From: Patescibacteria group bacterium
Lineage (GTDB): Bacteria > Patescibacteriota > Minisyncoccia > Phycocordibacterales > GCA-2747955
Direction: 5' to 3'
DNA length: 64,000 nucleotides
Assembly: GCA_048538215.1 (NCBI GenBank)
Contig: JBLYPV010000001.1
Location: forward strand, 75,495 to 139,494
Positions 230 through 27,724 of this stretch are shown here, one piece after another. The notes beneath the pieces were generated by a model. That model saw only the letters and a list, made by a program, of their open reading frames with translations, did no database searches and had not been told where the DNA came from. The stretch's first letter is position 1; every line of letters starts with the position of its first letter. A program made the translations under genes and the position numbers.

Positions 230-706
230 ATGAAAAATAAATACAATATGAGCATTATCGTCTTGCTCGTGTTTATTGCGGGGCTTATCTTGGGGTACTT
301 ATTTGCTAATAATAAGCTATATCCAGGGTATATGATGAACAGCTCACATATAGATCAAGGCTTGTATGATTATTCTCCTGTTGAGAACAAAAATGAAATT
401 GAATTTTCAATAGAGCAAGAAGATGAATACACATATGATGATTTGGTGGCCAATGATGGAGAGCTCCAGCATATGATGGATGAAATGATGTTGATTGGGC
501 GCGGTAAAGAGGGGCAGGCATATGAGGAGGCTTGGTTGCGGGGGATGATTGCACATCACTTGGGAGCAATCGAAATGTCTAAAACATTACTAGAGCACAC
601 AAAGCGACCAGAATTACAAGAATTAGCAAATAATACTATCAATAATCAGTCTACCGAAATATCCCAAATGAAGGCATGGCTTGGAGATTGGTATAACAAT
701 GATTAA
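230..706 (+). CDS. DUF305-family protein (copper-resistance-associated), N-terminal TM anchor
   Basis: Motifs EAWLRGMIAHHLGAIEMS typical of DUF305; N-terminal hydrophobic segment. Confidence 0.55.
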   Translation: MKNKYNMSIIVLLVFIAGLILGYLFANNKLYPGYMMNSSHIDQGLYDYSPVENKNEIEFSIEQEDEYTYDDLVANDGELQHMMDEMMLIGRGKEGQAYEEAWLRGMIAHHLGAIEMSKTLLEHTKRPELQELANNTINNQSTEISQMKAWLGDWYNND

Positions 707-8197: not shown

Positions 8198-9439
8198 TTA
8201 GATACTATTGCCCGCCACAAAGCCAGTAGTCCAACATAATTGGAGAGAATAGCCACCTGATGGGCGATGTATGTTGAGCAAGTCACCAATGATATACAAC
8301 CCTTGATGCAAGGTGGATTCCATAGTCTGCATATGTATTTCAGACAGTGAAACACCCCCATCGGCAATAACGGCTCGGTCAAATCCCATTGTGCCGGTAA
8401 TCGGAAAGCGTATATCTTTGAGTGATTGTACCAAGCGCTTGCGATCCTCTTTCCCAAGATCTCCACTTGGGAGCTCGGCTCCCAAGTGGTTGTAATTGAT
8501 GATCTCTGTAGCGAGCTTTTTTGGTAGTAATTCGCTTAGTGTATTGAGGAGGGTTTTCTTAGGGTGAGTATCTAGTAGCTTACGGATGCGCTTATCAAGT
8601 AGGTCGAGCTCTGTATCGGGATATAAATCGATTGAGCACTCCACATCAGTGTACCAAGAGAGTAGCTCAGATACCTTATGGCTTATATTAAGAATCATTG
8701 GGCCGGAAATACCAAAATGTGTAAATAAGACTTTGCCCTTTATGTTTATTTTTTGCTTACGATCGGCGTAGAAGCGTACCTTTGCAAAGGACCAATCGAT
8801 GCCCGCAAGACGGTGGAGCCATTTAGCATTTGTCTTGAGGGGCACGATGCTGGGATTGGGCTTGGCGATAGTGTGGCCTTACGATGCAAGCCAAGAAAAG
8901 CCATCGCCGGTAGAGCCAGTCTCAGGAGCAGCGTAGCCACCCGTGGAGAGAATAAGCTTTGATGCTTGAAATGTGCCCTTACTTGTTGCTACTTGCCATA
9001 GGGTATCTTTTTTAGTGATTGTTTTTACTTGGTGATTTATTTGTATCTCGACACCACTTTCTCGGCAATAGCTCTGCATTGTGGTGGTCACATCTAAAGC
9101 TCGTTCGCTTCGTGGGAACATACGTGTACGAGCTTGGGTGACAAGTGGTAGACCTTTGGATTCAAAAAAATTAATAGTGTGCTGGACATTAAATATAGAA
9201 AAGGGAGTATAGAGATATTTTTTTGCACTTGGAAAACTTTCTAAAAAATCCTTGAAGTCGAGCTTGTGATTGGTGATATTGCATCGCCCACCTCCGGTAA
9301 TGGAAAGCTTTTTGCCCACCTTGCTATTTTTTTCTAGGAGGAGGACTCGCTTACCTCGCTCGCTTGCTCGACCAGCAGCCATCATGCCCGCTGGCCCAGC
9401 CCCAATCACAATAACATCATAGATTTGGGCGTTTTTCAT
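8198..9439 (-). pseudogene. HI0933-like NAD(P)/FAD-dependent oxidoreductase interrupted by one in-frame TAA
   Basis: N-terminal part VIVIGAGPAGMMAAG (Rossmann fold) and C-terminal part are in the same frame, separated only by TAA at 8879..8881 (...SWLAS*GHTIAKPNPSIVPLKT...). Confidence 0.7.
8463..8489. repeat. Palindromic repeat copy CCACTTGGGAGC-TCG-GCTCCCAAGTGG, in-frame inside the flavoprotein gene (encodes HLGAELPSG)
   Basis: 12 bp arms, 3 nt loop; identical core to copies at 15279 and 22415. Confidence 0.85.
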
Positions 9440-9559
9440 AATGCTTGCATTGTAGCAAATTTCAAAGCTAATACTCTATCTAACTAAATAAGCAGATAAG
9501 TACTGGAGCTTGCAATTTAAGGTGAAATCTGTATAGTGCCGATACATAATTCAAAAACT

Positions 9560-9892
9560 ATGGAAAAATTTGCAGTAATTAAGACAGGAGGTAAGCAGTA
9601 TCGGGTACAGGAGGGAGATATGCTCAAGGTAGAGCTACTTGGTGGCATTACTACTGAGCACGAAGCAGGGGAGAAAATGGTATTCGATGAAGTGCTTCTT
9701 ATTGATGATGGATCAAATATTAAGGTGGGGACACCCATTCTCGATGGTGCTCAAGTAGAAGCAGAATTTGTCGATCGAGTGAAAGGCAAGAAGCTTCGTA
9801 TTCAAAAATTTAAATCTAAATCAAATTACGACAAGGTGATAGGCCATCGACAGAAGTTTGACGAAATAAAAATTACTAAAATTGTTGATTAA
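9560..9892 (+). CDS. rplU: 50S ribosomal protein L21
   Basis: MEKFAVIKTGGKQYRVQEGD... canonical L21 N-terminus. Confidence 0.85.
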   Translation: MEKFAVIKTGGKQYRVQEGDMLKVELLGGITTEHEAGEKMVFDEVLLIDDGSNIKVGTPILDGAQVEAEFVDRVKGKKLRIQKFKSKSNYDKVIGHRQKFDEIKITKIVD

Positions 9893-9899
9893 GTATAAT

Positions 9900-9918
9900 C
9901 CCGCCTCAGGCGGGATTT
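9900..9918 (+). terminator. Rho-independent terminator after rplU (CCCGCC-TCA-GGCGGG + ATTT)
   Basis: 6 bp GC stem followed by T-rich tract. Confidence 0.55.
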
Positions 9919-9940
9919 GCTATACTACTCTTTTGTGAAG

Positions 9941-10771
9941 ATGCAAAAGATGCTATTTGAAGAATTGAAACAAGCGCTCTGGGGCTATTATGATACAGGT
10001 AGCCGTAATTTGTCTTGGAGAAAATCAATCACTCCTTATAAAGTGGTAGTGTCTGAGATTATGCTCCAGCAAACGCAAGTTTCGCGTGTGGAGCAGTACT
10101 TTGCTAAATGGATGCGAGATTTTCCCTCATGGAAAGCTTTGGCGGGGGCGAGTCGTAAAGATGTGCTTGGGCACTGGCAAGGCTTGGGCTATAATCGGCG
10201 TGCTCTTTATCTACATCGCACTGCTTGTATTGTGAGCAATCAGTATGGAGGCCGACTACCACGAGAAAGTAGTGAGCTTGTGGCCTTGCCTGGAATTGGA
10301 CCCTATACCTCTGGGGCGATCCGTGCTTTTGCCTTTAATATTCTTGATATTTTTTTAGAGACAAATATTCGTACTGTTTTGATACATCATTTTTTTGAAG
10401 CTGAGGCAGATCAAAAAATAGAGGAGAAAACATTGCTGACTATATTGCAGTCATATATTGAGTATGATGTACGAGCAAGAGAGGATCCTAGAGAGTTTTA
10501 CTATGCGCTTATGGATTATGGAGCTTATTTGAAAAAAGAAGTAGGAAATTTGAATATAAAATCTGCAAGGTATAATAAACAATCTCGTTTTGAAGGATCA
10601 CGCAGGCAATTGCGTGCTGGTATTTTACGCTATATTCTTGAGAATGGGCCTGTGTTAGAAACGAAGATTGTTTTTCAATCCAAGCGTACTAAAGAAGAAG
10701 TAGGTGAGCTATTACGTGAGCTAGAAAAGGAGGGGAGTGTGAGTAAGACGAAACAAGGTTATAAGGTATAG
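9941..10771 (+). CDS. HhH-GPD superfamily DNA glycosylase, MutY/EndoIII-like
   Basis: SEIMLQQTQVSRVEQYF... GLGYNRRALYL... LPGIGPYTSGAI helix-hairpin-helix/GPD motifs; no obvious 4-Cys cluster. Confidence 0.6.
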   Translation: MQKMLFEELKQALWGYYDTGSRNLSWRKSITPYKVVVSEIMLQQTQVSRVEQYFAKWMRDFPSWKALAGASRKDVLGHWQGLGYNRRALYLHRTACIVSNQYGGRLPRESSELVALPGIGPYTSGAIRAFAFNILDIFLETNIRTVLIHHFFEAEADQKIEEKTLLTILQSYIEYDVRAREDPREFYYALMDYGAYLKKEVGNLNIKSARYNKQSRFEGSRRQLRAGILRYILENGPVLETKIVFQSKRTKEEVGELLRELEKEGSVSKTKQGYKV

Positions 10772-10812
10772 TAAATGCAAAAAATAAAAAATATGGTATT
10801 CTAGCAAAACAC

Positions 10813-10899
10813 GGAGAGTTGCCAGAGTGGTCGAATGGGGCACCCTGCTAAGGTGTTAGGGGCGCAAGCCTCTCGAGGGTTCGAATCCCTCACTCTCCG
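10813..10899 (+). tRNA. tRNA-Ser (anticodon GCT), type II with long variable arm
   Basis: Acceptor GGAGAGT/ACTCTCC, anticodon loop CTGCTAA, T-loop GGTTCGAATCC. Confidence 0.85.
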
Positions 10900-11042
10900 C
10901 AAAATTAAAATTTAAGAGTTTTCAGGGGATGTATGTACACGTGGTGTATCAATCGGCAAAATCCTACGGATTTTACTTGTACAATGCTTGAACTCTACAC
11001 AAGACACTGTTAAAAAATTTCTCGCCCTTTGATGCAAAAATA

Positions 11043-12539
11043 TCAACGATGACGATAGGCAGTGCCAGCGTGTAGAGGGCCGTCTAGCAAATCACTAATA
11101 GTGACGAAAGTAAATCCTTGTTTTTTCAATTCCCTAATCACCTCAGGGATTGCCATTACAGTGGATTGATGAATATCATGGGCCAGGATGATCGCACCAC
11201 TTTGTGGGCTTGTCATTCTCCTGACAAGCTCAGCGTAGGGTGGCTTTTTCCAGTCTTCAGGATCTACGCTCCACAAGATGATAGGGCGGTCAATATGGGA
11301 AAGCACCTCGTCATTAAATGCACCATATGGCGGGCGAAGATAGAGTGGCTTTATGCCGGCTATGCTGTACAAAAGATCATCCGTTTTTCCTAATTCTTCA
11401 TCAATCTGGTCTCCCGCAAGGCTACGTAAATCTCTATGGCTCCAAGTGTGATTACCCAGCTCGTGCCCATCTTGTACTATGCGAAGAATAGTATCGGGCT
11501 GAATTTTAGCCGACCGCCCCAAGACAAAAAATGTGGCTGGCACATCATATTCCTTTAGGGTGTCTAATAGAGTATTGGTATAAATTGATGGGCCATCATC
11601 AAAGCTAAGGGCTACACACCTTGTTGCTCCACAATCCACCTCACTGTTGCTCGATTCTGGATAGATAGGCGGTATTACTGTGGTAGGGGGAAGGGGCTTG
11701 CTAATAGAAAATAGCTCTCGTAGTTTGGGTGTAATAATATCAGCAATATCTTCGATTGGTATTCGTATCTCAACAATACCATCCGACCCCGGGCCTACTT
11801 GATATTTATCAAAATAAATTATCAAGCTAGCACTCTCATCTACTACTAGCGTGTCAAAATTTTTTGCATTTGGGGCAGTCCCTACATCAATCGCTTGTTT
11901 TCTACTAATAATAAATTCAGAGATTGCTTGTTCTGACCCGTCGAGATTTTTGGCAGTTTCTTCTGCTCGTTTATATAATATATCTCGAGAAATCTTTGAT
12001 AATCTTTTTAGATAATCTTCATCAGTAAACAAAGATGCAAGAGGGATCTCTGTGCCAGTTTGTCGATTGAATATCTTGCTAGAGGTAATACCCATACCAG
12101 TACCACCAGTATCCAAATAGCGGTCAAAGACAAATGATATATAAGTTTCATCTGCAAATGATACATCAAAGTGTTGGGTGTAGTGAGTAATAGTGGTATA
12201 GGATTCCATACCAGTCTCCGCAAGATATTTCTGATATGCCTCTTCTTGGTCGGCAGCTGTTTGATAAAATAAATCAATAAATTCTTGTGAAAAATTTTCT
12301 ACTATATGATTGACAGCCTCATTTTCTGTTACTGGATAGGCCACATTTAATAAAGAACGGCCATCATTATCACGATACTCGATTGTCTTTACATTAATAT
12401 TGTCGTATTTTGATGATTGGATAGTGCTAGTCTCACCTTCTGTACTAGAGGGAGAAACATTTGAAAGGTAGGAACGCAGAGTCCATCCTAATACGGCAGT
12501 AGTAATTACGAGTACAATGATTGTTAGAATTTGTTTCAT
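11043..12539 (-). CDS. Membrane-anchored polysaccharide deacetylase (NodB domain), PdaC-like
   Basis: C-terminal NodB motifs FDDGP, HTWSH, LRPPYG, ILAHD; N-terminal TM plus about 280 aa extracellular region. Confidence 0.7.
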   Translation of the reverse strand: MKQILTIIVLVITTAVLGWTLRSYLSNVSPSSTEGETSTIQSSKYDNINVKTIEYRDNDGRSLLNVAYPVTENEAVNHIVENFSQEFIDLFYQTAADQEEAYQKYLAETGMESYTTITHYTQHFDVSFADETYISFVFDRYLDTGGTGMGITSSKIFNRQTGTEIPLASLFTDEDYLKRLSKISRDILYKRAEETAKNLDGSEQAISEFIISRKQAIDVGTAPNAKNFDTLVVDESASLIIYFDKYQVGPGSDGIVEIRIPIEDIADIITPKLRELFSISKPLPPTTVIPPIYPESSNSEVDCGATRCVALSFDDGPSIYTNTLLDTLKEYDVPATFFVLGRSAKIQPDTILRIVQDGHELGNHTWSHRDLRSLAGDQIDEELGKTDDLLYSIAGIKPLYLRPPYGAFNDEVLSHIDRPIILWSVDPEDWKKPPYAELVRRMTSPQSGAIILAHDIHQSTVMAIPEVIRELKKQGFTFVTISDLLDGPLHAGTAYRHR

Positions 12540-12649
12540 ATCAATATACTATAACGCAAATTGTTCTAAAAGAATACAAAAATATACATAGATCATTAAT
12601 AGTATTTTGCCTACTTTCAATGCTATGGGGATAGAGATAGAGGAGAGGG

Positions 12650-12658
12650 TGGTATAAT
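12650..12658 (+). promoter_or_regulatory. Extended -10 (TGGTATAAT) 8 nt upstream of rpiB ATG: candidate leaderless promoter
   Basis: TGnTATAAT at 12650..12658; ATG at 12666. Confidence 0.5.
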
Positions 12659-12665
12659 ATTTATT

Positions 12666-13187
12666 ATGAATAAAGGAAAGCTATACTTAGCTGCAGATCA
12701 TGCAGGGTTTGAGTATAAAAATATTTTGCACAAATATTTTGAGGATGTAGGATTAGATCATTACGAAGTGATAGATTTAGGAGCTTTTGTTTATAATGAG
12801 AGCGATGATTATCCAGACATTATTGCACGAGCTGGCCTTCTAGTATCAGCCAATCCTACTAGAGACAAGGCAATTATTTTTGGTGGCTCTGGGCAGGGTG
12901 AGGCGATAGTCGCCAATAAATTTGCTGGGGTACGCGCAGTAGTATACTATGGCTACAATCATGAAATTATTGCCCTCTCACGTGAGCATAATGATGCCAA
13001 TGTGCTCTCTATCGGCGCTCGATTCGTAAATGATAAGGAGATGGTCGAGGCAGCCAATCAATGGCTTGGTACTCCATTTTCAGACGAAAAGCGACACAAG
13101 CGAAGAATTGATCGTATCACTACTATAGAGAAAAATCGCGCTTGGAGATTCTTAGAGCGGATACTTAATCGTACTCCTAATAAATAA
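12666..13187 (+). CDS. rpiB: Ribose-5-phosphate isomerase B
   Basis: LYLAADHAGFEYKN... GGSGQGEAIVANK RpiB/LacAB motifs. Confidence 0.85.
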   Translation: MNKGKLYLAADHAGFEYKNILHKYFEDVGLDHYEVIDLGAFVYNESDDYPDIIARAGLLVSANPTRDKAIIFGGSGQGEAIVANKFAGVRAVVYYGYNHEIIALSREHNDANVLSIGARFVNDKEMVEAANQWLGTPFSDEKRHKRRIDRITTIEKNRAWRFLERILNRTPNK

Positions 13188-13192
13188 ATCGT

Positions 13193-14260
13193 ATGATAGA
13201 AATATCCCTCATTAAAGTTGTCTTATCTTGGTTGGTATCTTTTTTGATAGGATTTTTGATTACTCCCTATGTTATCAAGGTACTCACGCGCTTTCGTTGT
13301 TGGAAAAAGCGTTCTGGCAATACTCACTCTATGGGGAGCAATGGAGGCACACCTATATTCAACAAGCTACACGCTGATCGTGATACCAGGGTACCGCGTA
13401 TGGGAGGTATTGTAATCGTAATATCAGTATTGGCTACCACATCGATTTTTTGGGCAATAGGCTTCATCATCAGTGGTGGGCCATCAGGCGGTGATTTTGA
13501 TTTTCTTTCACGCACGCAGACCTGGCTTCCTCTAGCCGCCTTTGTGGCAGGGGCACTGATTGGATTTATTGATGATCTGCTCACCATTGGAGCAAGTAGA
13601 CGCTTCCCAAGCCTACAAGGGCTAGCACTTCGGTATAGGATTATTTTATCTACTGCTTTTGCCATACTCTCTGCCTATTGGTTTTATGTCAAGCTGGGTA
13701 TTGATAGTGTATTTGTGCCATGGTATGGAGATTTTGTGATGGGCTGGTGGTTTGTACCATTTTTTATCCTTGCTTTTATTGCAATTTTTGCCACTTCAAA
13801 TATCGACGGCTTAGATGGCTTGGCAGGTGGGGTAATGGCAATTATTTTTACCGCGATGGGAATTATCGCCTATTTCCAAAATCAGATAGATATCGCTGCT
13901 TTTTGCTTCGCAATAGTGGGGGGGACTCTTGCTTTTTTATGGTTTAATATCCCCCCTGCTCGATTTTATATGACAGAAGTGGGCTACAATGCTCTCTCTT
14001 TCTCGCTTGCTATTGTGGCATTTGCCACCGATACCATTTTAATCTTACCAGTATTGGCAGTGGTGCTCTTTATGACAGAAATTACTACAATATTACAAGT
14101 ATTATCCAAAAAAATCAGAGGTAAAAAAATATTTCGAGTAGCACCTATTCATCATCACTTCGAGGCTATTGGCTGGCCAGCTCATCAGGTAGTAATGCGA
14201 TATTGGATTGTTTCATTGATCGGAGCGGTGCTAGGGGTGATGCTCGCCTTCACAGCGTAG
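13193..14260 (+). CDS. mraY: Phospho-N-acetylmuramoyl-pentapeptide transferase
   Basis: NIDGLDGLAGG and PIHHHFE...GW motifs of MraY; 10 TM topology. Confidence 0.8.
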   Translation: MIEISLIKVVLSWLVSFLIGFLITPYVIKVLTRFRCWKKRSGNTHSMGSNGGTPIFNKLHADRDTRVPRMGGIVIVISVLATTSIFWAIGFIISGGPSGGDFDFLSRTQTWLPLAAFVAGALIGFIDDLLTIGASRRFPSLQGLALRYRIILSTAFAILSAYWFYVKLGIDSVFVPWYGDFVMGWWFVPFFILAFIAIFATSNIDGLDGLAGGVMAIIFTAMGIIAYFQNQIDIAAFCFAIVGGTLAFLWFNIPPARFYMTEVGYNALSFSLAIVAFATDTILILPVLAVVLFMTEITTILQVLSKKIRGKKIFRVAPIHHHFEAIGWPAHQVVMRYWIVSLIGAVLGVMLAFTA

Positions 14261-14294
14261 TTTGTTTTATATTATATGTATGGTATAAGTATAT

Positions 14295-14846
14295 TTGAAT
14301 GGAAAGGAGGTGATTGAAATGGATGGTACGAGCTACCTGATTAGCAGGGCTCAATTCGAGGAAATTACAAAGGAGTGGCACTATGGAGATCCACTTCCCC
14401 AAAAGCTACATCCAAGTATTTTTCGCCCCAATCGTGATGCCCACCCCTATTGGTTTGAGCCGGGAAAGGCTGCAGATCTTCGTGGGGCATACCACGAAGA
14501 GCGCCTCAAATATTTGATCGAGCTCGGCAAAGAAGAGGGGGAGCATGATTGGATCAGAGCAGTACGACTGAGCCCTGCCTATAGTGTTCGTGATAGGCGA
14601 GGGATTGATCTCACTCTGGATACTTGCTTTGGCAAGGTGCATGTCCAGGTAAAGAGTAGTCTTAGGGGGATGTGGAAATTTCTCAGCTATACCCCTAAAT
14701 TTTCGTCGAAGAAAGTTATTCCCTGCGTAGTCGTGCACACAGATATGACAGATGAAGAAATTCTCTATCAGTTTGTGCAAAAAGTGCGTCCATTTCTCCT
14801 GAAGAAGAAGCGTGAGAAAGAAGTATGGGATAGAGAGCACAAGTAG
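14295..14846 (+). CDS. Hypothetical protein, GC-rich ORFan; possible PD-(D/E)xK-like motif (GIDLTLD...VQVK)
   Basis: 183 aa; GC content visibly above flanking genes; weak D...QxK nuclease-like pattern only. Confidence 0.35.
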   Translation: MNGKEVIEMDGTSYLISRAQFEEITKEWHYGDPLPQKLHPSIFRPNRDAHPYWFEPGKAADLRGAYHEERLKYLIELGKEEGEHDWIRAVRLSPAYSVRDRRGIDLTLDTCFGKVHVQVKSSLRGMWKFLSYTPKFSSKKVIPCVVVHTDMTDEEILYQFVQKVRPFLLKKKREKEVWDREHK

Positions 14847-14865
14847 GACGCTCTATGCGGGCGTC

Positions 14866-16044
14866 CTACAGTGCCAAATTGCCGTCTACTCGAGTAATAC
14901 TACTCGGGTATTTTTTATGTATAAATCGTTGGTAGCCCGCCAGATTAATCATCAAAGCATTATCCCCTGAGAGAGAAAGATCGGGTAAATAGAGAGAAAT
15001 AGAATATTCATCAGCGAGTGTTTGAAATTGCTCTCGTAAATAGGCATTAGCCGATACCCCACCACCTACAATTAGATTTTGTACGTCATATGCCCCAATT
15101 GCTTGCCGAGTTTTATGTATCAATACTTCTGCTACTGCTTCTTCAAATTCAAGCGCGAGTTCTTGTTTGAATTTTTTTGATATACGAGCGCGTGATTCTA
15201 CAGCTCGACGCACAGCTGTTTTAAGCCCCGAAAAAGAAAAATTATAATCTCCACTGTGTATCATAGGCCGAGGCAGTCCCCACTTGGGAGCTCGGCTCCC
15301 AAGTAATCGAGCTAGATCTGCCTGGCGGGAAATTTCGGGGCCACCAGGGTAGGGGAGCCCAAGTAATCGAGCTGATTTATCAAAAGCTTCACCTACAGCA
15401 TCATCTAGCGTCTCACCAATAATTGTGTATCTATGTTTATCATCGATCCGTACAAGCTCAGTATGTCCACCAGAGATAAGTACCGCCAAGCTCGGATATG
15501 CTATTTGTTTTAGAGCGTAGCTATCATTATTTTTTGATTTTATTTTTTGTATTAAACTTGCGTATATATGCCCTTCCATATGATTCGTAGGAATAAGAGT
15601 GATATCCCAAATATGTGCTAGTGCTCGAGCAGTGTTGAATCCCGTCCAAAGTGCTATCTCGAGTCCAGGGCCGTATGTAACAGCAATGGCTTTAAGTAAG
15701 GGCTTTTTATATTGTTCGGCAAGAGTAATAATTTTTTCAGCAATCTCGGGATCTCTCTCAAGAATTGCGTGTATCGCTTTCTTATCTACAGCACTAAGCT
15801 CTTTTGGCTTTGTCCTAGCTTCAAGCAAGCCAGATTCTTTAAGAGCAGAAAATAAAAGAGGCATTATATTTTTCTGATGCTCTCTGCGTGCCAAGCTTGG
15901 ATATACGCCACCATATTTGCGATGTAGGGCAATTTGCGAATGAGTAAGATGTGAGAGTAGCTCAAACTCATTTTTATTACACCAATCAAGGATGGCAAGA
16001 GATGTTTCATCGCAAGATGTTTCTATCGAAAGTATTTTTGTCAT
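14866..16044 (-). CDS. tsaD: tRNA N6-adenosine threonylcarbamoyltransferase
   Basis: MTKILSIETSCDETS..., GLPYPGGP, SFSGLKTAV motifs of Kae1/TsaD; carries a palindromic repeat insertion. Confidence 0.85.
   Translation of the reverse strand: MTKILSIETSCDETSLAILDWCNKNEFELLSHLTHSQIALHRKYGGVYPSLARREHQKNIMPLLFSALKESGLLEARTKPKELSAVDKKAIHAILERDPEIAEKIITLAEQYKKPLLKAIAVTYGPGLEIALWTGFNTARALAHIWDITLIPTNHMEGHIYASLIQKIKSKNNDSYALKQIAYPSLAVLISGGHTELVRIDDKHRYTIIGETLDDAVGEAFDKSARLLGLPYPGGPEISRQADLARLLGSRAPKWGLPRPMIHSGDYNFSFSGLKTAVRRAVESRARISKKFKQELALEFEEAVAEVLIHKTRQAIGAYDVQNLIVGGGVSANAYLREQFQTLADEYSISLYLPDLSLSGDNALMINLAGYQRFIHKKYPSSITRVDGNLAL
15279..15304. repeat. Palindromic repeat copy inside tsaD (in-frame, encodes LGSRAPKWG)
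   Basis: CCACTTGGGAGCTCGGCTCCCAAGT; flanked by a 16 nt direct repeat CCCAAGTAATCGAGCT at 15298..15313 and 15358..15373. Confidence 0.85.
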
Positions 16045-16045
16045 A

Positions 16046-16624
16046 CTATTGATTCATTAGCTCGCGCCATTTTTTACGAGTTACAGAGCGATAGCTCTCG
16101 TTACCTCCTATCAAATTTTGAGGGCCGTCTTGGGCCACTTTTCCATCTTCATCGAATCGGAGTACCATGGTAGCTTTTTTCCCCGATTCATCAATCGTAC
16201 GAATTTCTCTAAGATCGTCAGCAATTGCTAAAAGCGCTTGCGATCCAGGGAAAAGCTCGCCTCGAAAATCAGTACGAAGCCCATAGGCCATTACAGGAAT
16301 ATCTAAGTCATCCACCACTTGCGCTACTTGCCACACCTGTTCTTTGCTAAGAAATTGAGCTTCATCTATCAAAACGCAATCAATGGCTTGCACGCTATGC
16401 TTATTTTGTATTTTTTCAAATAAATTTTCTTGTGGCGTAAATACATCACATTTTTTAGACACACCAATCCGCGAGCTAATCACATCACTACCATCTCGAT
16501 TATCGAGAGCTGGCTTGAGTAAATAAGGATGCATTTTTCGCTCCAAATAATTATGTGCGACCTGCAGGAGCATGGTACTTTTACCTGCATTCATTGCTGA
16601 GTAATGAAAATAGAGCTTTGCCAT
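16046..16624 (-). CDS. tdk: Thymidine kinase
   Basis: SAMNAGKSTMLL P-loop, DEAQF, C-terminal zinc-ribbon-like region. Confidence 0.85.
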   Translation of the reverse strand: MAKLYFHYSAMNAGKSTMLLQVAHNYLERKMHPYLLKPALDNRDGSDVISSRIGVSKKCDVFTPQENLFEKIQNKHSVQAIDCVLIDEAQFLSKEQVWQVAQVVDDLDIPVMAYGLRTDFRGELFPGSQALLAIADDLREIRTIDESGKKATMVLRFDEDGKVAQDGPQNLIGGNESYRSVTRKKWRELMNQ

Positions 16625-16688
16625 AAAGTCTATTTTAGCATATTATCTCTTGCCTCATATGCTGGGATTGGTATACTAGCTTTTACTT

Positions 16689-16765
16689 GGGTGATTAGCT
16701 CAGTTGGCTAGAGCGCCTCATTGACGTTGAGGAGGTCACAGGTTCAAATCCTGTATCGCCCACCA
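16689..16765 (+). tRNA. tRNA-Val (anticodon GAC), CCA encoded
   Basis: GGGTGATTAGCTCAGTTGG..., anticodon loop TTGACGT, T-loop GGTTCAAATCC. Confidence 0.85.
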
Positions 16766-16944
16766 GTATAGAAATTTCGGGTTCAAAACCAACTTTGTCA
16801 TGAGCGGTACTTCGTGCCGCCCGAGCACGCGGCGCGTGGCAGGTGTTCCGTTTGAAATGAGTTCGAGCTTGGTACAATAGAGACACCCATACACAAGCGA
16901 AAGTTACTTTTGCTTTTTATCTTAGTTTTAAAGAGTCTGTAGTG

Positions 16945-17017
16945 AGCCACCGGCGAGATTCGAACTCACGACCTCTATATTACGAATATATTGCTCTACC
17001 AACTGAGCTACGGTGGC
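16945..17017 (-). tRNA. tRNA-Thr (anticodon CGT)
   Basis: Reverse complement GCCACCGTAGCTCAGTTGGTAGAGC...TTCGTAA...GAGTTCGAATCTC...CGGTGGC. Confidence 0.8.
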
Positions 17018-17080
17018 ATTGAACTATGCTCTAGAATAATATCACACACTTATTTTTATAACATACATATTTTATAAATA

Positions 17081-17089
17081 TGGCATAAT
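17081..17089 (+). promoter_or_regulatory. Extended -10 TGGCATAAT 9 nt upstream of the HIT gene ATG
   Basis: Sequence position relative to ATG 17098. Confidence 0.45.
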
Positions 17090-17097
17090 ACAAGCAT

Positions 17098-17511
17098 ATG
17101 AGAGAACAAACAATTTTTGAAAAAATTATTAATCGCGAATTGCCTGCTGACATTATATACGAAGATGAGGAGCACTTGGTAATTCTTGATATTAATCCTT
17201 TTGAAAAAGGGCATATTCTAGTTATTCCCAAGCACCACTATGAAACGATTATGGATATGAGCGAAGAAGCATATCTGCAATTACAATCGTTAGTCCATCG
17301 CTTTGCGCTACGAATGCACCAGAGCTTTGGTGGGGGTATTAATGTGGTACAAAACAATTATCCAGAGGCACATCAAGTGGTCCCTCATGTGCATGTTCAT
17401 CTTATCCCGCGTACCGAAGACAAGCCGATGTATCATAGTGAGCTTCATACAGGAGGCTATGAATCAGATGAAGAAAAAGAGAGCTTTATCAGCAAGCTAA
17501 AATTGGTATAA
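17098..17511 (+). CDS. HIT-family (histidine triad) nucleotide hydrolase
   Basis: HVHVHLIP histidine triad, ...HILVIPKHH... Confidence 0.8.
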   Translation: MREQTIFEKIINRELPADIIYEDEEHLVILDINPFEKGHILVIPKHHYETIMDMSEEAYLQLQSLVHRFALRMHQSFGGGINVVQNNYPEAHQVVPHVHVHLIPRTEDKPMYHSELHTGGYESDEEKESFISKLKLV

Positions 17512-17909
17512 TGGGCGCTATGAAATTAGCAGAGCAATACGCCCGTACTTTATTGCAAGTAGCAGAGACAAAAGATGCAAAAGATTTTGATAAATTTTTT
17601 GATTTATTTATTGAATATCTGCGAGCACATCATCACGAAAAGCTCATACCACAAATATGCAAAAATGTAGTGCGCTTGAGCAAGTCTCAAGAGGCTTCCA
17701 ATAAAGCTACGATTACGGTGCGAGCCTTAGGAGAAGATAAGAAATTTTCTGATCTGATACATGAGCATCAAGATATGTTTGGCAATGCACCGCAAGTACA
17801 AGTGGATGCACACATTGTTGGGGGAGCTGTTTTGCGCAATCGCACACACCTAGTAGACGCAAGCTACCGCAAGGCCTTACTCGATCTTTATCAAACTCTG
17901 AAAAAATAA
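17511..17909 (+). CDS. atpH: F-type ATP synthase delta subunit (short, 132 aa)
   Basis: C-terminal ...HIVGGAVLRNRTHLVDASYRKALLDL pattern of OSCP/delta; position directly upstream of atpA. Confidence 0.55.
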   Translation: MGAMKLAEQYARTLLQVAETKDAKDFDKFFDLFIEYLRAHHHEKLIPQICKNVVRLSKSQEASNKATITVRALGEDKKFSDLIHEHQDMFGNAPQVQVDAHIVGGAVLRNRTHLVDASYRKALLDLYQTLKK

Positions 17910-17927
17910 TAAGTTTTTAATATAAAA

Positions 17928-17946
17928 ATCCGGGCCCTTAGGCCCA
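17928..17946 (-). terminator. Terminator for the minus-strand small membrane protein gene (GGGCC-TAAG-GGCCC then ATTTTTAT on minus strand)
   Basis: Hairpin plus T-tract only in minus orientation. Confidence 0.5.
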
Positions 17947-17990
17947 GATATGGTGTGCGAATCTTTAGAATAAGCTCCTCGAACGATTTA

Positions 17991-18233
17991 TTACTCGTCG
18001 GGGTCTTTTGTTGTAAGCCACAACGCGAAGAACCCCAAGAGCAAGATAAGGCAGAGGAGCAAGAAGGCAGTAGTCACCAAGGTCCAGAGCCAGATACTCT
18101 CCCACCCAAGGAGCATAGTAAGTAGGGTCTTCATGAGCCACACGAGCCCGATGAAGCCCAAGAGCTTCAAGGCAGGGAAGCAGTCGCGGATCATTCCCTG
18201 GAGCTCGGATTGTTCTTTCGTATGGTAAACCAT
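17991..18233 (-). CDS. Small 2-TM membrane protein (PLDc_N-like), encoded antisense between atpH and atpA
   Basis: 80 aa from MVYHTKEQ with SD AAAGGAGAG 7 nt upstream; hydrophobic WLW...LLLCLILLLGFFALW core; own terminator. Confidence 0.45.
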   Translation of the reverse strand: MVYHTKEQSELQGMIRDCFPALKLLGFIGLVWLMKTLLTMLLGWESIWLWTLVTTAFLLLCLILLLGFFALWLTTKDPDE

Positions 18234-18346
18234 TTTTTCTCTCCTTTCATCCTCACTTGCGCATAAGTGTAGCATAATCATTACACATTTGCTCGTCCTT
18301 TGGTATAATACGCGCGTATTAAACACTAATAATTTAAGAGAGCCCT

Positions 18347-19909
18347 ATGTCTAATCCAATTATTGAAAAGCTACAAAAAGAAATCAAAAATTTTTCAAAT
18401 AAAAGCACGGTAGAGTCTATTGGTACGGTCGTACAAGTAGCAGATGGAGTAGTGGAGATCGAAGGCCTCGAGGGGGTCAAAATGTCTGAGATGGTACGCT
18501 TTTCTTCAGATACAAGCAAGGCACTAGAAGAAGTGCTAGATAATACGAGCGAGGTATATGGCTTGATTCTTAATCTTGAAGAAGATGTGGTCAAGGCGGT
18601 AGTGATGGGAGATGCAAGCGGTATCAAGGAGGGTGATATGGTGGTCAAAACGGGCGAAATTCTTTCGGTACCAGTGTCAGAAGAAATACTCGGTAGAGTG
18701 GTAGACACACTCGCTCGCCCTATTGACGGAAAAGGAGCAATCAAAGAAGACAAGCAGATGCTTCTCGAGCGGGAGGCGTATTCGGTGATAGATCGAGCCC
18801 CAGTAAACACCCCTCTCCAAACGGGGATTAAAAGTATCGATGCACTTATTCCGATTGGGCGGGGACAGCGTGAGCTTATCATTGGAGATCGTGGCACAGG
18901 GAAGACCACCATTGCGATTGATACAATTATCAATCAAAAATATGAGCCAGAAGCAAAGCGTCCAATTTGTATATATGTCGCAATCGGACAAAAAGAATCA
19001 AAAACAGCCAAAATAGTTGAAGAGCTACGACAAGCGGGGGCCCTGGAATATTCAGTGATCGTATCAGCTCCAGCTTCTCGATCAGCTACTGAGCAATTCC
19101 TCGCTCCTTTTACTGGAGTAGCAATTGCCGAATACTTTATGGATCAGGGAAAGGATGTCCTAATCGCTTACGATGATCTTTCCAAGCAAGCTGCTGCTTA
19201 TCGACAAATGTCGCTTTTGCTCCGACGCCCACCAGGACGAGAAGCATACCCTGGTGATGTTTTTTATCTGCACTCCAGATTGCTCGAGCGGTCAGCCAAG
19301 GTGCATGAGGGATTAGGAGGAGGATCTATTACAGCTCTACCAATTATTGAGACGCAAGAGGGCGATGTATCCGGCTTTATTCCTACTAATGTGATCTCCA
19401 TTACCGATGGACAAATTTTCCTAGATACAAATTTGTTTAACAAAGGGATTCTACCAGCAATTGATGTAGGGCTCTCTGTGTCTCGTGTGGGCTCATCGGC
19501 TCAAACCAAAGCAATGAAGAAAGTGTCAGGGCGTATCAAGGTGGATTTGGCACAGTTTCGTGAGCTAGAGGCTTTTATGCAATTTTCTAGTGATCTTGAT
19601 GAGAACACCCGAGAAAAAATTGAATCTTCTGTACGGGTAGTAGAAATGCTTAAGCAAAAAAATAGCGCACCACTTCCTTTTGAAAAACAAGTCGTCACAC
19701 TTTACTTTGTATCAAATGGATTTGCTCGAGATTTTGAGGTAGATACACTCGCTGGAATTGAAAAAGAGCTTCATGAGCGAATTGAAGCAGAAAAGCCAGA
19801 AATACTTGGCACTATTCGTGAAAGTGGAAAATTGGAGGATGACACCAGGGATGCTCTGCATGATTTTCTAGAGCATTTTGTGGTCTCAAAAGGGGTAAAG
19901 CAATCATAG
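18347..19909 (+). CDS. atpA: F-type ATP synthase alpha subunit
   Basis: GDRGTGKTT Walker A and full alpha-subunit homology. Confidence 0.95.
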   Translation: MSNPIIEKLQKEIKNFSNKSTVESIGTVVQVADGVVEIEGLEGVKMSEMVRFSSDTSKALEEVLDNTSEVYGLILNLEEDVVKAVVMGDASGIKEGDMVVKTGEILSVPVSEEILGRVVDTLARPIDGKGAIKEDKQMLLEREAYSVIDRAPVNTPLQTGIKSIDALIPIGRGQRELIIGDRGTGKTTIAIDTIINQKYEPEAKRPICIYVAIGQKESKTAKIVEELRQAGALEYSVIVSAPASRSATEQFLAPFTGVAIAEYFMDQGKDVLIAYDDLSKQAAAYRQMSLLLRRPPGREAYPGDVFYLHSRLLERSAKVHEGLGGGSITALPIIETQEGDVSGFIPTNVISITDGQIFLDTNLFNKGILPAIDVGLSVSRVGSSAQTKAMKKVSGRIKVDLAQFRELEAFMQFSSDLDENTREKIESSVRVVEMLKQKNSAPLPFEKQVVTLYFVSNGFARDFEVDTLAGIEKELHERIEAEKPEILGTIRESGKLEDDTRDALHDFLEHFVVSKGVKQS

Positions 19910-19932
19910 ATTCCAAGTGATATAGATCAATT

Positions 19933-20865
19933 ATGGCACTCAAAGACATTAAAGAAAAAATACAATCGGTACAAAAGACAGCAAAAGTCACCAAAGCGAT
20001 GGAATCTGTTTCAGCGGTCAAGATGCGCCGAGCTCAAGAAGATGCTATTCGTTCTCGGCCTTATACGCACGCTGCGTTTTCTATTTTGCGCCACCTATCT
20101 TATGTATCAAAGATGAATGTTGATCAAATGTATGATTTTCATACCAAAGATTCAGGGCGGATATGTATTGTACTTATTACTTCATCCAAAGGACTTTCAG
20201 GAGCTTTAAATGCAAATATTTTTAAGAAATTAGAGAGTTTACTTGAGGTCAACAATTGGGATACACAAAATACTGATTTTATCTGCGTAGGGAAGAAAGG
20301 ACGAGAATATGTAGAGCGCAAGGGGTACAAGGTGATACATACAAGAGATCAATTTGATGATAATGATGCTGGGCCAGTATTACGGGAAATTTCTGATTTG
20401 TGCCTTGATCTATTTCATCATCACGACTATCAGCAGATTCATACGGTATACACTAATTTTATCAGCACGACAGAGCAAGAGGCAGTGAGTGGTAAAATAC
20501 TACCAATCAAGCATAAAGAGATAGAGGAATTTATTCGTGAGGCGATCCCACGATCAGGACGCTATAGCAATATGCATGATTTTGATTTTGATAAAGAAAC
20601 AGAGCAAACATCGGAATACCTCTATGAGCCTGATCCGGAGACTCTTATCAAGCATCTAGTGCCACATTTATTATATATTGGGCTCTACCATTCGTTGCTC
20701 GAATCTAAAGCATCCGAGCATTCTGCACGGATGATTGCAATGAAGAATGCAACAGACAAAGCAAATGAAGTAGCTAGTGATTTGAACCGTGAGTACAACA
20801 AGGCTCGACAAGCTGCTATTACTCAGGAAATTTCCGAGATTGTGACAGGAATGGAGACGATGTAG
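19933..20865 (+). CDS. atpG: F-type ATP synthase gamma subunit
   Basis: MALKDIKEKIQSVQKTAKVTKAMESVSAVKMRRAQE N-terminus, conserved C-terminal helix. Confidence 0.85.
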   Translation: MALKDIKEKIQSVQKTAKVTKAMESVSAVKMRRAQEDAIRSRPYTHAAFSILRHLSYVSKMNVDQMYDFHTKDSGRICIVLITSSKGLSGALNANIFKKLESLLEVNNWDTQNTDFICVGKKGREYVERKGYKVIHTRDQFDDNDAGPVLREISDLCLDLFHHHDYQQIHTVYTNFISTTEQEAVSGKILPIKHKEIEEFIREAIPRSGRYSNMHDFDFDKETEQTSEYLYEPDPETLIKHLVPHLLYIGLYHSLLESKASEHSARMIAMKNATDKANEVASDLNREYNKARQAAITQEISEIVTGMETM

Positions 20866-20993
20866 AGCACACAAATTATCCACAAGGGTATCCACAAGAG
20901 CAAATTGCAAAAAAAATAGAAAAAGGTACTATGTATTTATTGGACGACTTGTCGTTCAATATGTCCATCTCTTCGGAGGTGCGACAGCAAATT

Positions 20994-21016
20994 CGCCCTT
21001 CGGGGCGTTTTTGTTT
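20994..21016 (+). terminator. Rho-independent terminator after atpG (CGCCC-TTCG-GGGCG + TTTTT)
   Basis: GC stem with TTCG tetraloop and T-run. Confidence 0.75.
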
Positions 21017-21049
21017 TATAGGTAGAATATTGGGTGTATACTAGGTGGT

Positions 21050-21643
21050 ATGGATGCTTATTTTCAAAAAATCAAAAAGGAGATTATGAATGATCCTGCA
21101 AATAGGGATTACACTAAAAAGGGGATAGAGCCACTATTTACTGCTTCTCGCAAAGCAAAAATCATTATTATTGGGCAAGCCCCAGGCAAAAAGGCACAAG
21201 ATGCTGGTATTATATGGGATGATATGAGTGGTGATAATTTGCGAGAATACTTGGGAGTGAGTAGGGAAATTTTTTATGATGATGAGCAGATAGCACTTAT
21301 TCCTATGGATTTTTATTTTCCAGGCAAGGGAAGAAATGGTGATCTAGCTCCTAGAAAAGAGTTTGCAAAAAAATGGCATACACCTATTTTTAACGAGCTT
21401 AGGGATGATGCTTTGGTGATAGTGGTAGGGCAGTATGCTCAGAAAGAATATTTGCCAGATAATATACGATACGCCAACCTTACAGAAAATGTAGAGCATT
21501 ATAAAGAATTTTTAAAATTCAATATTTTTCCTCTACCCCATCCTTCTCCAAGAAATAATATTTGGCTAAGCAAGCACCCTTGGTTTAAAAAAGATGTCGT
21601 TCCTGTTCTTCAAAGAGAAGTAGCAAAAAGATTATCTATATAG
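21050..21643 (+). CDS. Uracil-DNA glycosylase superfamily protein (family 4/5-like)
   Basis: IIGQAPG motif A and HPSPRN motif B. Confidence 0.6.
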   Translation: MDAYFQKIKKEIMNDPANRDYTKKGIEPLFTASRKAKIIIIGQAPGKKAQDAGIIWDDMSGDNLREYLGVSREIFYDDEQIALIPMDFYFPGKGRNGDLAPRKEFAKKWHTPIFNELRDDALVIVVGQYAQKEYLPDNIRYANLTENVEHYKEFLKFNIFPLPHPSPRNNIWLSKHPWFKKDVVPVLQREVAKRLSI

Positions 21644-21646
21644 AAG

Positions 21647-21672
21647 CCACTTAGGGACCGGGTCCCTAAGTG
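21647..21672. repeat. Variant palindromic repeat CCACTTAGGGACC-G-GGTCCCTAAGTG directly after the UDG stop
   Basis: 12 bp perfect arms; shares CCACTT...AAGTG termini with the main palindrome family. Confidence 0.75.
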
Positions 21673-21733
21673 AATCGGATTACTTGCACCCCATAGTCAT
21701 TTTGATATACTATCGAGCACTCACTGAGCTAGA

Positions 21734-21794
21734 TATCTCGTAAAACTGCCTAATAATATAGAATCCACATCGCGGAGTGGAGAAATGGTATCTC
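21734..21794 (+). repeat. Direct repeat copy 1 (61 nt): tRNA leader plus 5' fragment (acceptor strand and D-arm) of tRNA-fMet
   Basis: Identical to 21833..21893; followed by an inverted fragment of the fMet anticodon arm (GGTTATGAGCC, 21818..21828). Confidence 0.85.
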
Positions 21795-21832
21795 CAGGTG
21801 AGAATCAGAGCGAATAAGGGTTATGAGCCGGG

Positions 21833-21893
21833 TATCTCGTAAAACTGCCTAATAATATAGAATCCACATCGCGGAGTGGAGAAATGGTATCTC
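21833..21893 (+). repeat. Direct repeat copy 2 (61 nt) running into the complete tRNA-fMet
   Basis: Exact 61 nt identity with copy 1, 99 nt period. Confidence 0.85.
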
Positions 21894-21940
21894 GGGAGGC
21901 TCATAACCTCCAGAAGTTGGTTCGATTCCAACCTCCGCAA
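21870..21940 (+). tRNA. tRNA-fMet, putative initiator (anticodon CAT, C1:A72 mismatch)
   Basis: Acceptor CGCGGAG/CTCCGCA with unpaired C1-A72, D-stem GAGA/TCTC, anticodon loop CTCATAA, T-loop TTCGATT; anticodon stem GGAGG/CCTCC has only two of the three canonical initiator G:C pairs. Confidence 0.7.
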
Positions 21941-21980
21941 CAAGTTAGACCGAGGGCGACTAACCCGAGAACTTGCTTCT

Positions 21981-21998
21981 CTAGAGCAAAAGCTCTAG
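21981..21998 (+). other. Hairpin CTAGAGC-AAAA-GCTCTAG between two tRNA genes
   Basis: 7 bp perfect stem; possible processing or structural element. Confidence 0.35.
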
Positions 21999-22010
21999 CC
22001 CAGATTATTT

Positions 22011-22087
22011 GTCAGGGTAGCTCAGATGGTTAGAGCGCAGCACTCATAACGCTGAGGTCGTGGGTTCAATCCCCACCCTTGACACCA
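22011..22087 (+). tRNA. tRNA with CAT anticodon (elongator Met or lysidine-modified Ile2), CCA encoded
   Basis: GTCAGGGTAGCTCAGATGGTTAGAGC..., anticodon loop CTCATAA, T-arm GTGGGTTCAATCCCCAC. Confidence 0.75.
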
Positions 22088-22168
22088 ATAAGTATTCAGA
22101 TCTTGCATTTATCAATAGTTTGGATATACTTTCAAAAAATTTTGTGCGTAATCACACTAAACTAAAAA

Positions 22169-22210
22169 AATAAGCCAAGCATATTATATATATGCGGTCG
22201 TAGCTCAACT
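22169..22210 (+). repeat. Direct repeat copy 1 (42 nt): leader plus 5' fragment of tRNA-Asp
   Basis: AATAAGCCAAGCATATTATATATATGCGGTCGTAGCTCAACT identical to 22267..22308. Confidence 0.85.
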
Positions 22211-22266
22211 CAAGGTAAGAATAAAGCGAGCACTTGGTGCGGATATCACCTAAAACTATCGAAAGG

Positions 22267-22308
22267 AATAAGCCAAGCATATTATATATATGCGGTCGTA
22301 GCTCAACT
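22267..22308 (+). repeat. Direct repeat copy 2 (42 nt) running into the complete tRNA-Asp
   Basis: Exact identity with copy 1, 98 nt period. Confidence 0.85.
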
Positions 22309-22368
22309 GGTTAGAGCACCCGCCTGTCACGCGGGAGGCTGAGGGTTCAAATCCCTTCGACCGCGCCA
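22292..22368 (+). tRNA. tRNA-Asp (anticodon GTC), CCA encoded
   Basis: GCGGTCGTAGCTCAACTGGTTAGAGC, anticodon loop CTGTCAC, T-loop GGTTCAAATCC. Confidence 0.85.
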
Positions 22369-22375
22369 AGTAAAG

Positions 22376-22395
22376 TCGCCTTTAGAGGCGATTTT
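22376..22395 (+). terminator. Rho-independent terminator (TCGCCT-TTAG-AGGCGA + TTTT)
   Basis: 6 bp stem, T-run; ends the plus-strand tRNA cluster. Confidence 0.65.
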
Positions 22396-22414
22396 GTCTT
22401 ACAGGAAAGAAAGC

Positions 22415-22447
22415 AAGCCACTTGGGAGCTCGGCTCCCAAGTGGCTT
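22415..22447. repeat. Palindromic repeat, longest intergenic copy AAGCCACTTGGGAGC-TCG-GCTCCCAAGTGGCTT (15 bp arms)
   Basis: Perfect inverted arms; lies between convergent tRNA clusters. Confidence 0.85.
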
Positions 22448-22467
22448 ATGTAGTACCAAATAATGAA

Positions 22468-22485
22468 AAGACCTTTTCAGGTCTT
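22468..22485 (-). terminator. Hairpin AAGACC-TGAAAA-GGTCTT plus T-rich tract on minus strand, terminator for tRNA-Thr(GGT)
   Basis: 6 bp stem immediately 3' of the minus-strand tRNA. Confidence 0.5.
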
Positions 22486-22487
22486 TG

Positions 22488-27692: not shown

Positions 27693-27724
27693 TAGAGTTT
27701 TTTATAGACAATCCTCGATAAAAA

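Follow-up and report, generated by a model that had tools for sequence, protein, structure and literature searches.

Hairpins Read in Frame within Patescibacteria Housekeeping Genes Probably Belong to an Atypical REP/RAYT System

Why does one short palindrome recur along a stretch of a Patescibacteria genome, twice inside protein-coding sequence, and what could have placed it there? The stretch analyzed here, referred to as the window, is a 64-kb segment of contig JBLYPV010000001.1. Its palindromes are probably hairpins resembling repetitive extragenic palindromes (REPs), built on the 10-bp stem ACTTGGGAGC around a loop of 3 nt, with outer pairs that vary, and they would belong to a system driven by a Y1 HUH tyrosine transposase similar to the REP-associated tyrosine transposases (RAYTs), presumably encoded elsewhere in this organism's ~0.62-Mb genome. 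The original prediction, made from the window alone, described a dispersed palindromic family with stop-free, in-frame genic copies and took it for an undescribed class of element. The family is real, and 30 of 55 dispersed exact copies lie well inside long open reading frames (ORFs). The claim of a new class went too far, since in related genomes the hairpins flank and sit inside a RAYT-like Y1 HUH transposase gene, which is the already known REP/RAYT (REPtron) kind of arrangement, and since intragenic, in-frame REPs are on record in other phyla (PMC3733652). The system is an atypical REP/RAYT type and not a new element class.

A search of the window with the pattern CCACTTGGGAGCNNNGCTCCCAAGTGG, allowing up to 3 mismatches, returned exactly three matches, at 8463-8489, 15280-15306, and 22418-22444, and 100 dinucleotide-preserving shuffles of the window returned none, which confirms the three core-sharing copies reported originally. 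The first and third matches are exact, and the second has two mismatches, both in the final two bases. The common core is ACTTGGGAGC-TCG-GCTCCCAAGT, with the 3-nt loop TCG on the + strand in all three copies. The predicted architecture of 12- to 15-bp arms around a 3-nt loop holds for the loop and for the 12- and 15-bp arms, while the tsaD copy has arms of only 10 bp (Table 1). A fourth, diverged copy had also been proposed, and it proved to be a fully compensated variant hairpin, in which three stem positions differ from the main family and each change is matched on the opposite arm. This copy can alternatively be read as CACTTAGGGACC-G-GGTCCCTAAGTG, and its stem resembles the ACTT(G/A)G.... 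type found among the RAYT-linked variants of other genomes. It starts 5 nt past the stop codon of ORF 21050..21643 and has the same 5' flank (AAGCC) as copy 3, which sits between the convergent genes for tRNA-Asp (22292-22368, + strand) and tRNA-Thr (22488-22563, - strand). As single-stranded DNA, the four hairpins fold at -10.6 to -18.4 kcal/mol, with z-scores of -4.2 to -8.1, and none of 200 shuffles folded as well. With lengths of 23 to 33 nt and perfect 10- to 15-bp arms, they have the form of the short (20- to 50-nt) single-stranded-DNA hairpins that characterize REPs. A scan of 21000-23000 against Rfam found tRNAs and sub-threshold noise only, the hairpin matching no family.

Both genic copies are read on the - strand. 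As had been stated, the 27-mer is free of stop codons in all six frames and encodes HLGAELPSG at copy 1 (ORF 8198..8845) and LGSRAPKWG at copy 2 (tsaD), the latter in a variable surface loop of TsaD bounded by GGPEISRQADLAR and LPRPM. The tsaD hairpin is identical in an independent Logan assembly (contig L066).

Copies beyond the window were sought by an exact scan for ACTTGGGAGC-N3-GCTCCCAAGT over one genome per species (185,579 species), in which only exact matches within 8-kb stretches were counted, making the copy numbers lower bounds, and ORFs were called mechanically. The scan found 77 exact copies in 63 stretches of 33 other genomes, none of the stretches overlapping the window, so that the organism's own genome is not one of the species representatives scanned; with the window, the family comprises 80 copies in 34 genomes. 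All 33 genomes are Patescibacteria-type metagenome-assembled genomes, a few of which bear other labels, and no copy of the hairpin family falls outside Patescibacteria. All matches have one and the same stem, whereas the loop varies between genomes (TCG, GAA, TAA, TCA, CTG, and others). Within genomes, the loops agreed, up to reverse complement, in 88 of 97 copy pairs, compared with a mean of 23 and a maximum of 41 in 2000 shuffles of the loops, and this uniformity indicates that the copies of a genome are related by copying or homogenization and did not originate independently. Up to 7 exact copies per genome were present in the scanned stretches. The largest scanned contig, that of RAAC4 (693,530 bp), holds 5 exact copies, 3 of them at the transposase gene, corresponding to a density of about 1 hairpin per 140 kb.

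Among the 80 exact copies, 25 lie at transposase loci, 30 well inside other long ORFs, 5 at ORF edges, and 20 in intergenic sequence or short ORFs, so that about 55% of the dispersed copies (30/55) are found inside ORFs, i.e., in housekeeping genes. The host genes, checked against Pfam, include those for PurA (adenylosuccinate synthetase), DprA, Fmt (formyltransferase), a PIF1-like helicase, LigA (NAD-dependent DNA ligase), GatB, Tgt, IF-2, a Mur ligase, and KsgA, and the dispersed genic copies occupy mostly surface or variable stretches of these housekeeping genes, leaving the reading frame unbroken. The 30 genic copies use the frames very unequally, with 21 encoding LGAxLPS, 8 encoding LGSxAPK, and 1 encoding TWExxSQV (chi-square P = 3e-5). 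In genomes with a TAA or TGA loop, where one frame contains a stop, every genic copy is oriented so that the loop reads TTA or TCA. Freedom from stops in six frames, originally offered as the explanation of how genes tolerate the hairpin, is thus necessary, but it is incomplete as an explanation given the 21:8:1 frame use; either selection on the peptide that results or a preference for certain sites must be at work as well.

The link to a transposase comes from the related genomes. In several of them, three copies recur at a spacing of ~215 and ~490 nt, bracketing and lying inside a 218-aa ORF. Homologues of this ~218-aa protein are encoded in 13 of the 63 stretches, and the protein matches the Pfam family Y1_Tnp ("Transposase IS200 like") with 29.3 bits (cutoff, 23). 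The homologues have an invariant HxH motif (H80 and H82) and invariant tyrosines Y133 and Y140. The upstream hairpin lies just 5' of a TATACT-like box and the ATG, and the downstream hairpin lies 0 to 4 nt past the stop codon; both are the same perfect palindrome, and the hairpin alone is dispersed. This is a large transposase family, exceeding 7,700 clusters at E <= 1e-10, and some of its members carry the JGI label "REP element-mobilizing transposase RayT". A metagenome scan with the protein alignment added 80 loci with 34 to 60% identity. In 73 of 82 complete genes with flanks, at least one perfect hairpin is nearby, and in 53 of the 82 two or all three of the positions (upstream, internal, and downstream) have hairpins with the same core. 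The stem varies from locus to locus and is constant within a locus (ACTTGGGGAC, ACTTGGGGGT, ACTTGGAAAC, ACTTGGCGGT, ACTTAGAAAC, CAGATAGGGGC, and others); the outer stem ACTTRG alone is conserved across the variants, over many genera. Conserved synteny was considered as a sign of vertical inheritance of the transposase gene and was discarded, recJ being its neighbor in only 2 of 93 loci.

The transposase ORF itself carries internal hairpins, which are in frame and fall into two clusters, at codons 50 to 69 and 140 to 169. These sites are retained, with covariation, across homologues of 34 to 80% identity. At the first site, the peptides of 120 homologues track the covariation of the palindrome (LGSxAPK, FGSxAPK, LRSxASK, LGGETSK, and FRGSTSK), which indicates that the conserved entity is the DNA hairpin and not the peptide. 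In an AlphaFold model of the transposase (pLDDT, 84.6; pTM, 0.83), the hairpin-encoded residues 55 to 63 lie in a disordered loop, and the protein has a long C-terminal helical extension. The best fold match of the model in the Protein Data Bank (PDB) is 4ER8, the Escherichia coli REP-associated tyrosine transposase with its REP hairpin (E value, 3.2e-5; TM-score, 0.69 normalized to the target), followed by the IS608 TnpA and ISDra2 TnpA. Judged by its HUH motif, its tyrosines, and its predicted fold, the transposase is a distant lineage of the RAYT/TnpA-REP family.

More than one hairpin family can be present at once. At L070:3976-4669, TGACCTAAAC-TTA-GTTTAGGTCA occurs three times beside the ACTT(G/A)GGTGT pair at the transposase gene of that contig; at L073:3390-5489, ACTTGGGGAC stands at the transposase gene and ACTTGGCGGT inside a different gene; and at L038:1785-1834, two different hairpin families adjoin in one ORF. 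Several hairpin families can therefore coexist within one genome. Adjacent hairpin pairs are seen in a few places (L047, L038, L020, and L025).

The genic copies had been described as 9-codon insertions, and orthologue comparisons contradict this. The hairpin region of the HI0933-like gene shows no length difference in 34 orthologues, the distant ones reading ...KIIKDIPSSEI... or ...KIEVRLPSGQV... over an equal number of codons; the native (L/I)PS(G/S) is reproduced by the right arm, with the Ser codon AGT in place of TCN. In tsaD, the loop of 10 residues is as long as that of the hairpin-less orthologue in L065, the 30 nt with the hairpin corresponding to 30 unrelated nucleotides in L065 and to 63 nt in L064. 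Another TsaD (P0069) also has LGSHAPK in this loop, but the DNA encoding it, CTTGGAAGC-CAT-GCCCCCAAA, is not palindromic; it is either a decayed copy or a coincidence and was not used as evidence. Across orthologue pairs with and without the hairpin, the net length difference is 0 residues in ATP synthase gamma, RNase HII, and a Mur ligase, +1 in DNA ligase and formyltransferase, +2 in DprA, +4 in RsmI (compared with the window's own rsmI), +5 at KsgA site 1, and +8 or +9 at KsgA site 2 and a second formyltransferase site. Descriptively, then, a patch of ~27 nt replaces 0 to 9 native codons with a net gain of 0 to 9 residues. In RNase HII, the hairpin overlies the widely conserved motif FPxYGF, also conserved in the E. 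coli enzyme, and turns it into LPSWGF without an indel, so that it is not an ancient insertion that merely decayed in other lineages. In some pairs (RNase HII, the Mur ligase, and LPSG in HI0933), the native DNA at the replaced site is partly similar to one arm. Seeding by microhomology was considered on this account and set aside, the pairs being too few to tell mechanistic seeding from selection for similar residues.

Copies that stay in place also change. The closest available relative is represented by JGI sample 3300038702, with 72 to 73% amino acid identity. At identical HI0933 codons, the window has CCACTTGGGAGC-CGA-GCTCCCAAGTGG and the sister (L147/L148) has CCACTTGGGTGC-TAA-GCACCCAAGTGG, encoding HLGAKHPSG, and the same A:T-to-T:A swap together with the new loop is present in the intergenic copy that the sample carries beside tRNA-Thr (L064:1861-1903). 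The original prediction had equated orthologues that already hold the same residues with a chance palindrome; such residues were indeed found for HI0933, but the cause is not chance, as the orthologue bears its own compensated hairpin variant. Orthologous DNA ligase copies (L022 and L028) each carry the loop of their own genome, and in orthologous helicase copies (L016 and L057), the loop is flipped. These alignments point to concerted evolution, in which a copy staying at its locus changes arms and loop along with the rest of its genome's family. The orthologous pair L073 and L070, with different hairpin variants at one site, is suggestive only as a case of concerted change, the L070 copy having 2 mismatches and matching neither family in that contig.

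A mechanism that would join these observations starts from the enzyme recognizing the hairpin in single-stranded form, in the manner of E. coli TnpA-REP and IS608 TnpA. By analogy with REP systems (PMC8266576) and the IS608 structures, cleavage and strand transfer would then copy hairpins to new sites and rewrite existing copies, and such rewriting would keep the hairpin family of a genome uniform. The hairpins at the transposase gene would act as master copies, and a new genic copy would arise as a templated patch replacing ~0 to 9 native codons, not as a plain addition of 27 nt. Selection would retain the events that are in frame, free of stops, and fitting to the local protein, and this may account for the frame bias and for the likeness to native residues, as with LPSG in HI0933 and the change from FPxYGF to LPSWGF in RNase HII. 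It is possible, although we would sooner doubt it than assert it, that the RAYT-like enzyme overwrites DNA in place with a 23- to 33-nt templated patch spanning 0 to 9 codons and continually rewrites its copies, that the whole family thereby changes in concert, and that the hairpins within the transposase ORF serve as master copies.

Several points weigh against a RAYT-driven system of this kind. A tblastn search of the 64-kb window with the L013 protein found no transposase gene (best E value, 0.3, which is noise), and the link to a transposase is drawn for this organism by analogy with 11 other genomes sharing the same stem. The transposase scores weakly, with 18.3 bits against a cutoff of 80, on the curated NCBIfam equivalog REP_Tyr_transpos (NF047646), and a sequence-profile search of the PDB with it returned nothing at E <= 1; a match by fold without one by sequence is what marks the lineage as distant. 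A GTAG or CTAC lies within 10 nt of only 2 of 81 copies, and no conserved flank motif and no GTAG or CGTC tag was found. Copy number is low, the five exact copies on the RAAC4 contig comparing with hundreds for REPs, and the window copies are singletons spaced 0.8 to 7 kb apart, with no dimers of the BIME/REPIN kind. The reading of the sister genome takes L147 and L064 to share one genome. The rewriting step is itself our inference, and we know of no Y1 transposase mechanism that swaps its target for a tract of equal length.

Among known systems, the closest are the REPtrons, in particular the group 3 TnpA-REP systems of Stenotrophomonas and Pseudomonas with short perfect palindromes (PMC8266576, PMC2817692, PMC3116915). 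As in REPtrons, short, perfect, dispersed palindromes also flank a Y1 HUH transposase gene in the related genomes, enzyme and hairpin sequence covary between genomes, and the predicted fold is closest to TnpA-REP (4ER8). REP palindromes carry a conserved tetranucleotide, GTAG or CGTC, at their base (PMC8266576, PMC3733652). The Patescibacteria system differs in having no GTAG tag, a handful of copies in place of hundreds, and singletons in place of BIME/REPIN dimers; over half of its dispersed copies are inside ORFs, whereas REPs are mostly intergenic; in-frame hairpins occupy two conserved sites within the transposase ORF itself; and the ~218-aa protein, with its C-terminal helical extension, is very distant in sequence and belongs to a different phylum.

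Repeats lying entirely within ORFs, namely intragenic REPs and the RPE-4 and RPE-6 repeats, have been described from Opitutus, Rickettsia, and other bacteria (Di Nocera et al. 2013, PMC3733652). They too are short palindromes read through in frame, often in genes of DNA or RNA metabolism such as those for DNA ligase and tRNA-modifying enzymes; they are, however, the minority of a large, mostly intergenic family, carry the GTAG/CGTC tag, and are inserts, often dimers encoding 20 to 30 residues, whereas a single 23- to 33-nt hairpin here usually replaces native codons with 0 to 9 residues net. The Rickettsia palindromic element RPE-1 resembles the present hairpins in being a palindromic repeat tolerated in frame in coding genes, a parallel already drawn in the original prediction. 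RPE-1 measures ~100 to 150 bp and lengthens its host protein by 30 to 50 residues, and it is not known to have a linked transposase. The element described here is 23 to 33 nt long, has not lengthened the window's two proteins (TsaD being compared with L065), and is linked to a transposase gene. The IS200/IS605 elements (IS608 and ISDra2) likewise have a Y1 HUH transposase gene bracketed by hairpins that are recognized on single-stranded DNA. Their two end hairpins are distinct and imperfect, with guide sequences, the whole IS is repeated, and insertion occurs 3' of a target tetranucleotide; unlike these, both flanking hairpins in Patescibacteria are the same perfect palindrome, of which only the hairpin is dispersed.

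It is unlikely, though this explanation survives better than the other alternatives, that the host keeps the hairpins by selection for a structural or regulatory role, for example as terminators, mRNA stabilizers, or sites of transposase autoregulation, with a domesticated transposase and functional genic copies. The positions of copy 4 just behind a stop codon and of copy 3 between convergent tRNA genes, the hairpins directly 3' of the transposase stop and overlapping its promoter region, and the covarying maintenance of the two internal transposase sites over such diverged homologues would all suit a regulatory role, and RAYTs in general behave like housekeeping genes (PMC5581495). The genic copies, however, occupy nonconserved positions in unrelated proteins and are absent from close orthologues, and their frame bias and stop avoidance resemble tolerance and not function. 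Intrinsic termination in particular was rejected, as the sequences just behind copies 3 and 4, ATGTAGTACC and AATCGGATTA, contain no T-run, and copies 1 and 2 lie mid-ORF. A regulatory role can, moreover, coexist with a transposase origin.

We consider it very improbable that the hairpin is a motif maintained by a process other than transposition, such as a DNA uptake-type signal, built up in place through point mutation combined with biased uptake and recombination, or the binding site of another protein. Patescibacteria probably depend on DNA uptake, and the length-neutral replacement of native codons is the way in which uptake sequences accumulate in coding regions; conservation of the outer stem ACTTRG across many genera would also fit a maintained signal. 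The DNA uptake sequences of Neisseria (DUS) and the Pasteurellaceae (USS) are similarly short genic motifs with preferred frames and no indels, often paired as inverted repeats. They occur about once per kb, are fixed across a family of species, and are not known to be linked to a transposase gene. The present density, about 1 per 100 kb (about 1 per 140 kb in RAAC4), is far too low for such a signal. The window and its sister genome do not have the same stem, and although close relatives can thus diverge in their stems, these always agree with the stems beside the transposase gene. The window is also devoid of graded near-matches between perfect copies and background, and the change from Ser TCN to AGT at the HI0933 site is not a single step. 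The last alternative, that the palindromes arose by chance, are ordinary intrinsic terminators, or stem from assembly artifacts, has next to no probability: although the window contains other long, terminator-like palindromes at 27718, 38191, and 47013, the hairpins were absent from the shuffles, 33 other genomes contain the identical 23-mer, two of the copies are situated mid-ORF, and the same tsaD copy was recovered in an independent assembly.

The features of the window are listed in Table 1. The in-frame TAA of the HI0933-like gene leaves ORFs 8879..9439 and 8198..8845 and lies 390 nt from the hairpin, to which it is unrelated; the gene may be a pseudogene with a nonsense mutation, or the TAA may be a sequencing error. 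A query rebuilt with Leu at the TAA codon (LGHTI) aligned over its full length to orthologues of similar size (404 to 424 aa). The solitary left arm is probably native sequence or a chance match, ~0.1 occurrences of such a 10-mer being expected by chance in the window. At 51866-51888, in ORF 51369..51923, TGAGAACGGC-AAC-GCCGTTCTCA forms a perfect 10+3+10 palindrome (-11.6 kcal/mol; z-score, -5.3) read as DENGNAVLK, with the architecture of the family and an unrelated stem; it may represent some other hairpin family on its own, or it may have arisen by chance. Beside tsaD, a 183-aa ORF at 14295-14846 separates this gene from that of an MraY-like glycosyltransferase, and the two genes adjoin in the syntenic L064 and L065. 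The tRNA region around copies 3 and 4 contains two separate tandem duplications with a period of ~98 to 99 nt, 21725-21794/21824-21893 (70 nt) and 22164-22210/22262-22308 (47 nt), with 96% identity and a unit consisting of an AT-rich upstream stretch and the first ~17 to 25 nt of a tRNA gene (tRNA-Met at 21870 and tRNA-Asp at 22292). The sister contig L064 has the Met duplication as well, and GGGTTATGAGCCGGG, between the copies of the tRNA-Met duplication, resembles the antisense of an initiator-type anticodon arm. Relative to window positions 21650-22650, the tRNA-Met/Met/Asp cluster of L064 is inverted with respect to rsmI and tRNA-Thr, and the two genomes have the hairpin on different sides of tRNA-Thr.

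Table 1. Positions of the hairpins, their host genes, and a solitary arm in the 64-kb window
Feature	Position	Strand	Sequence and arms	Context
Hairpin copy 1	8463..8489		CCACTTGGGAGC-TCG-GCTCCCAAGTGG; 12-bp arms, 8463-8474 / 8478-8489	In HI0933-like flavoprotein gene
Hairpin copy 2	15280..15304		10-bp arms, 15282-15291 / 15295-15304	In tsaD
Hairpin copy 3	22415..22447		AAGCCACTTGGGAGC-TCG-GCTCCCAAGTGGCTT; 15-bp arms, 22415-22429 / 22433-22447	Intergenic
Variant hairpin (copy 4)	21648..21672		ACTTAGGGAC-CGG-GTCCCTAAGT; 10+3+10, plus one outer C:G pair	
Host gene 1	8198..9439	-		HI0933-like FAD flavoprotein, split by in-frame TAA at 8879-8881
Host gene 2	14866..16044	-		tsaD, 392 aa, intact; full-length alignment with orthologues
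Solitary left arm	558..567	+	ACTTGGGAGC	In ORF 230..706, codons HHLGA within ...MIAHHLGAIEMSK...; not counted as a copy

In the open-access literature, we found no description of a Patescibacteria lineage of the REP/RAYT system, of predominantly genic copies or hairpins conserved inside the transposase ORF, or of replacement over insertion and concerted change at an orthologous coding site. Neither the replacement of native sequence nor the concerted change of arms and loop is predicted by simple cut-and-paste or peel-and-paste models. Most of the dispersed copies are in conserved genes, which allows a codon-by-codon alignment of orthologues that have a copy with orthologues that lack one, and if a RAYT-like enzyme does overwrite DNA in place, the states before and after would be readable at single-base resolution in alignable coding sequence, so that the mechanism of REP dissemination could be inferred directly. 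For the organisms themselves, the finding means that housekeeping proteins of minimal genomes (TsaD, LigA, IF-2, GatB, RNase HII, and others) bear short peptide patches dictated by a DNA hairpin, which matter for the annotation, alignment-based phylogeny, and structural modeling of the host proteins.

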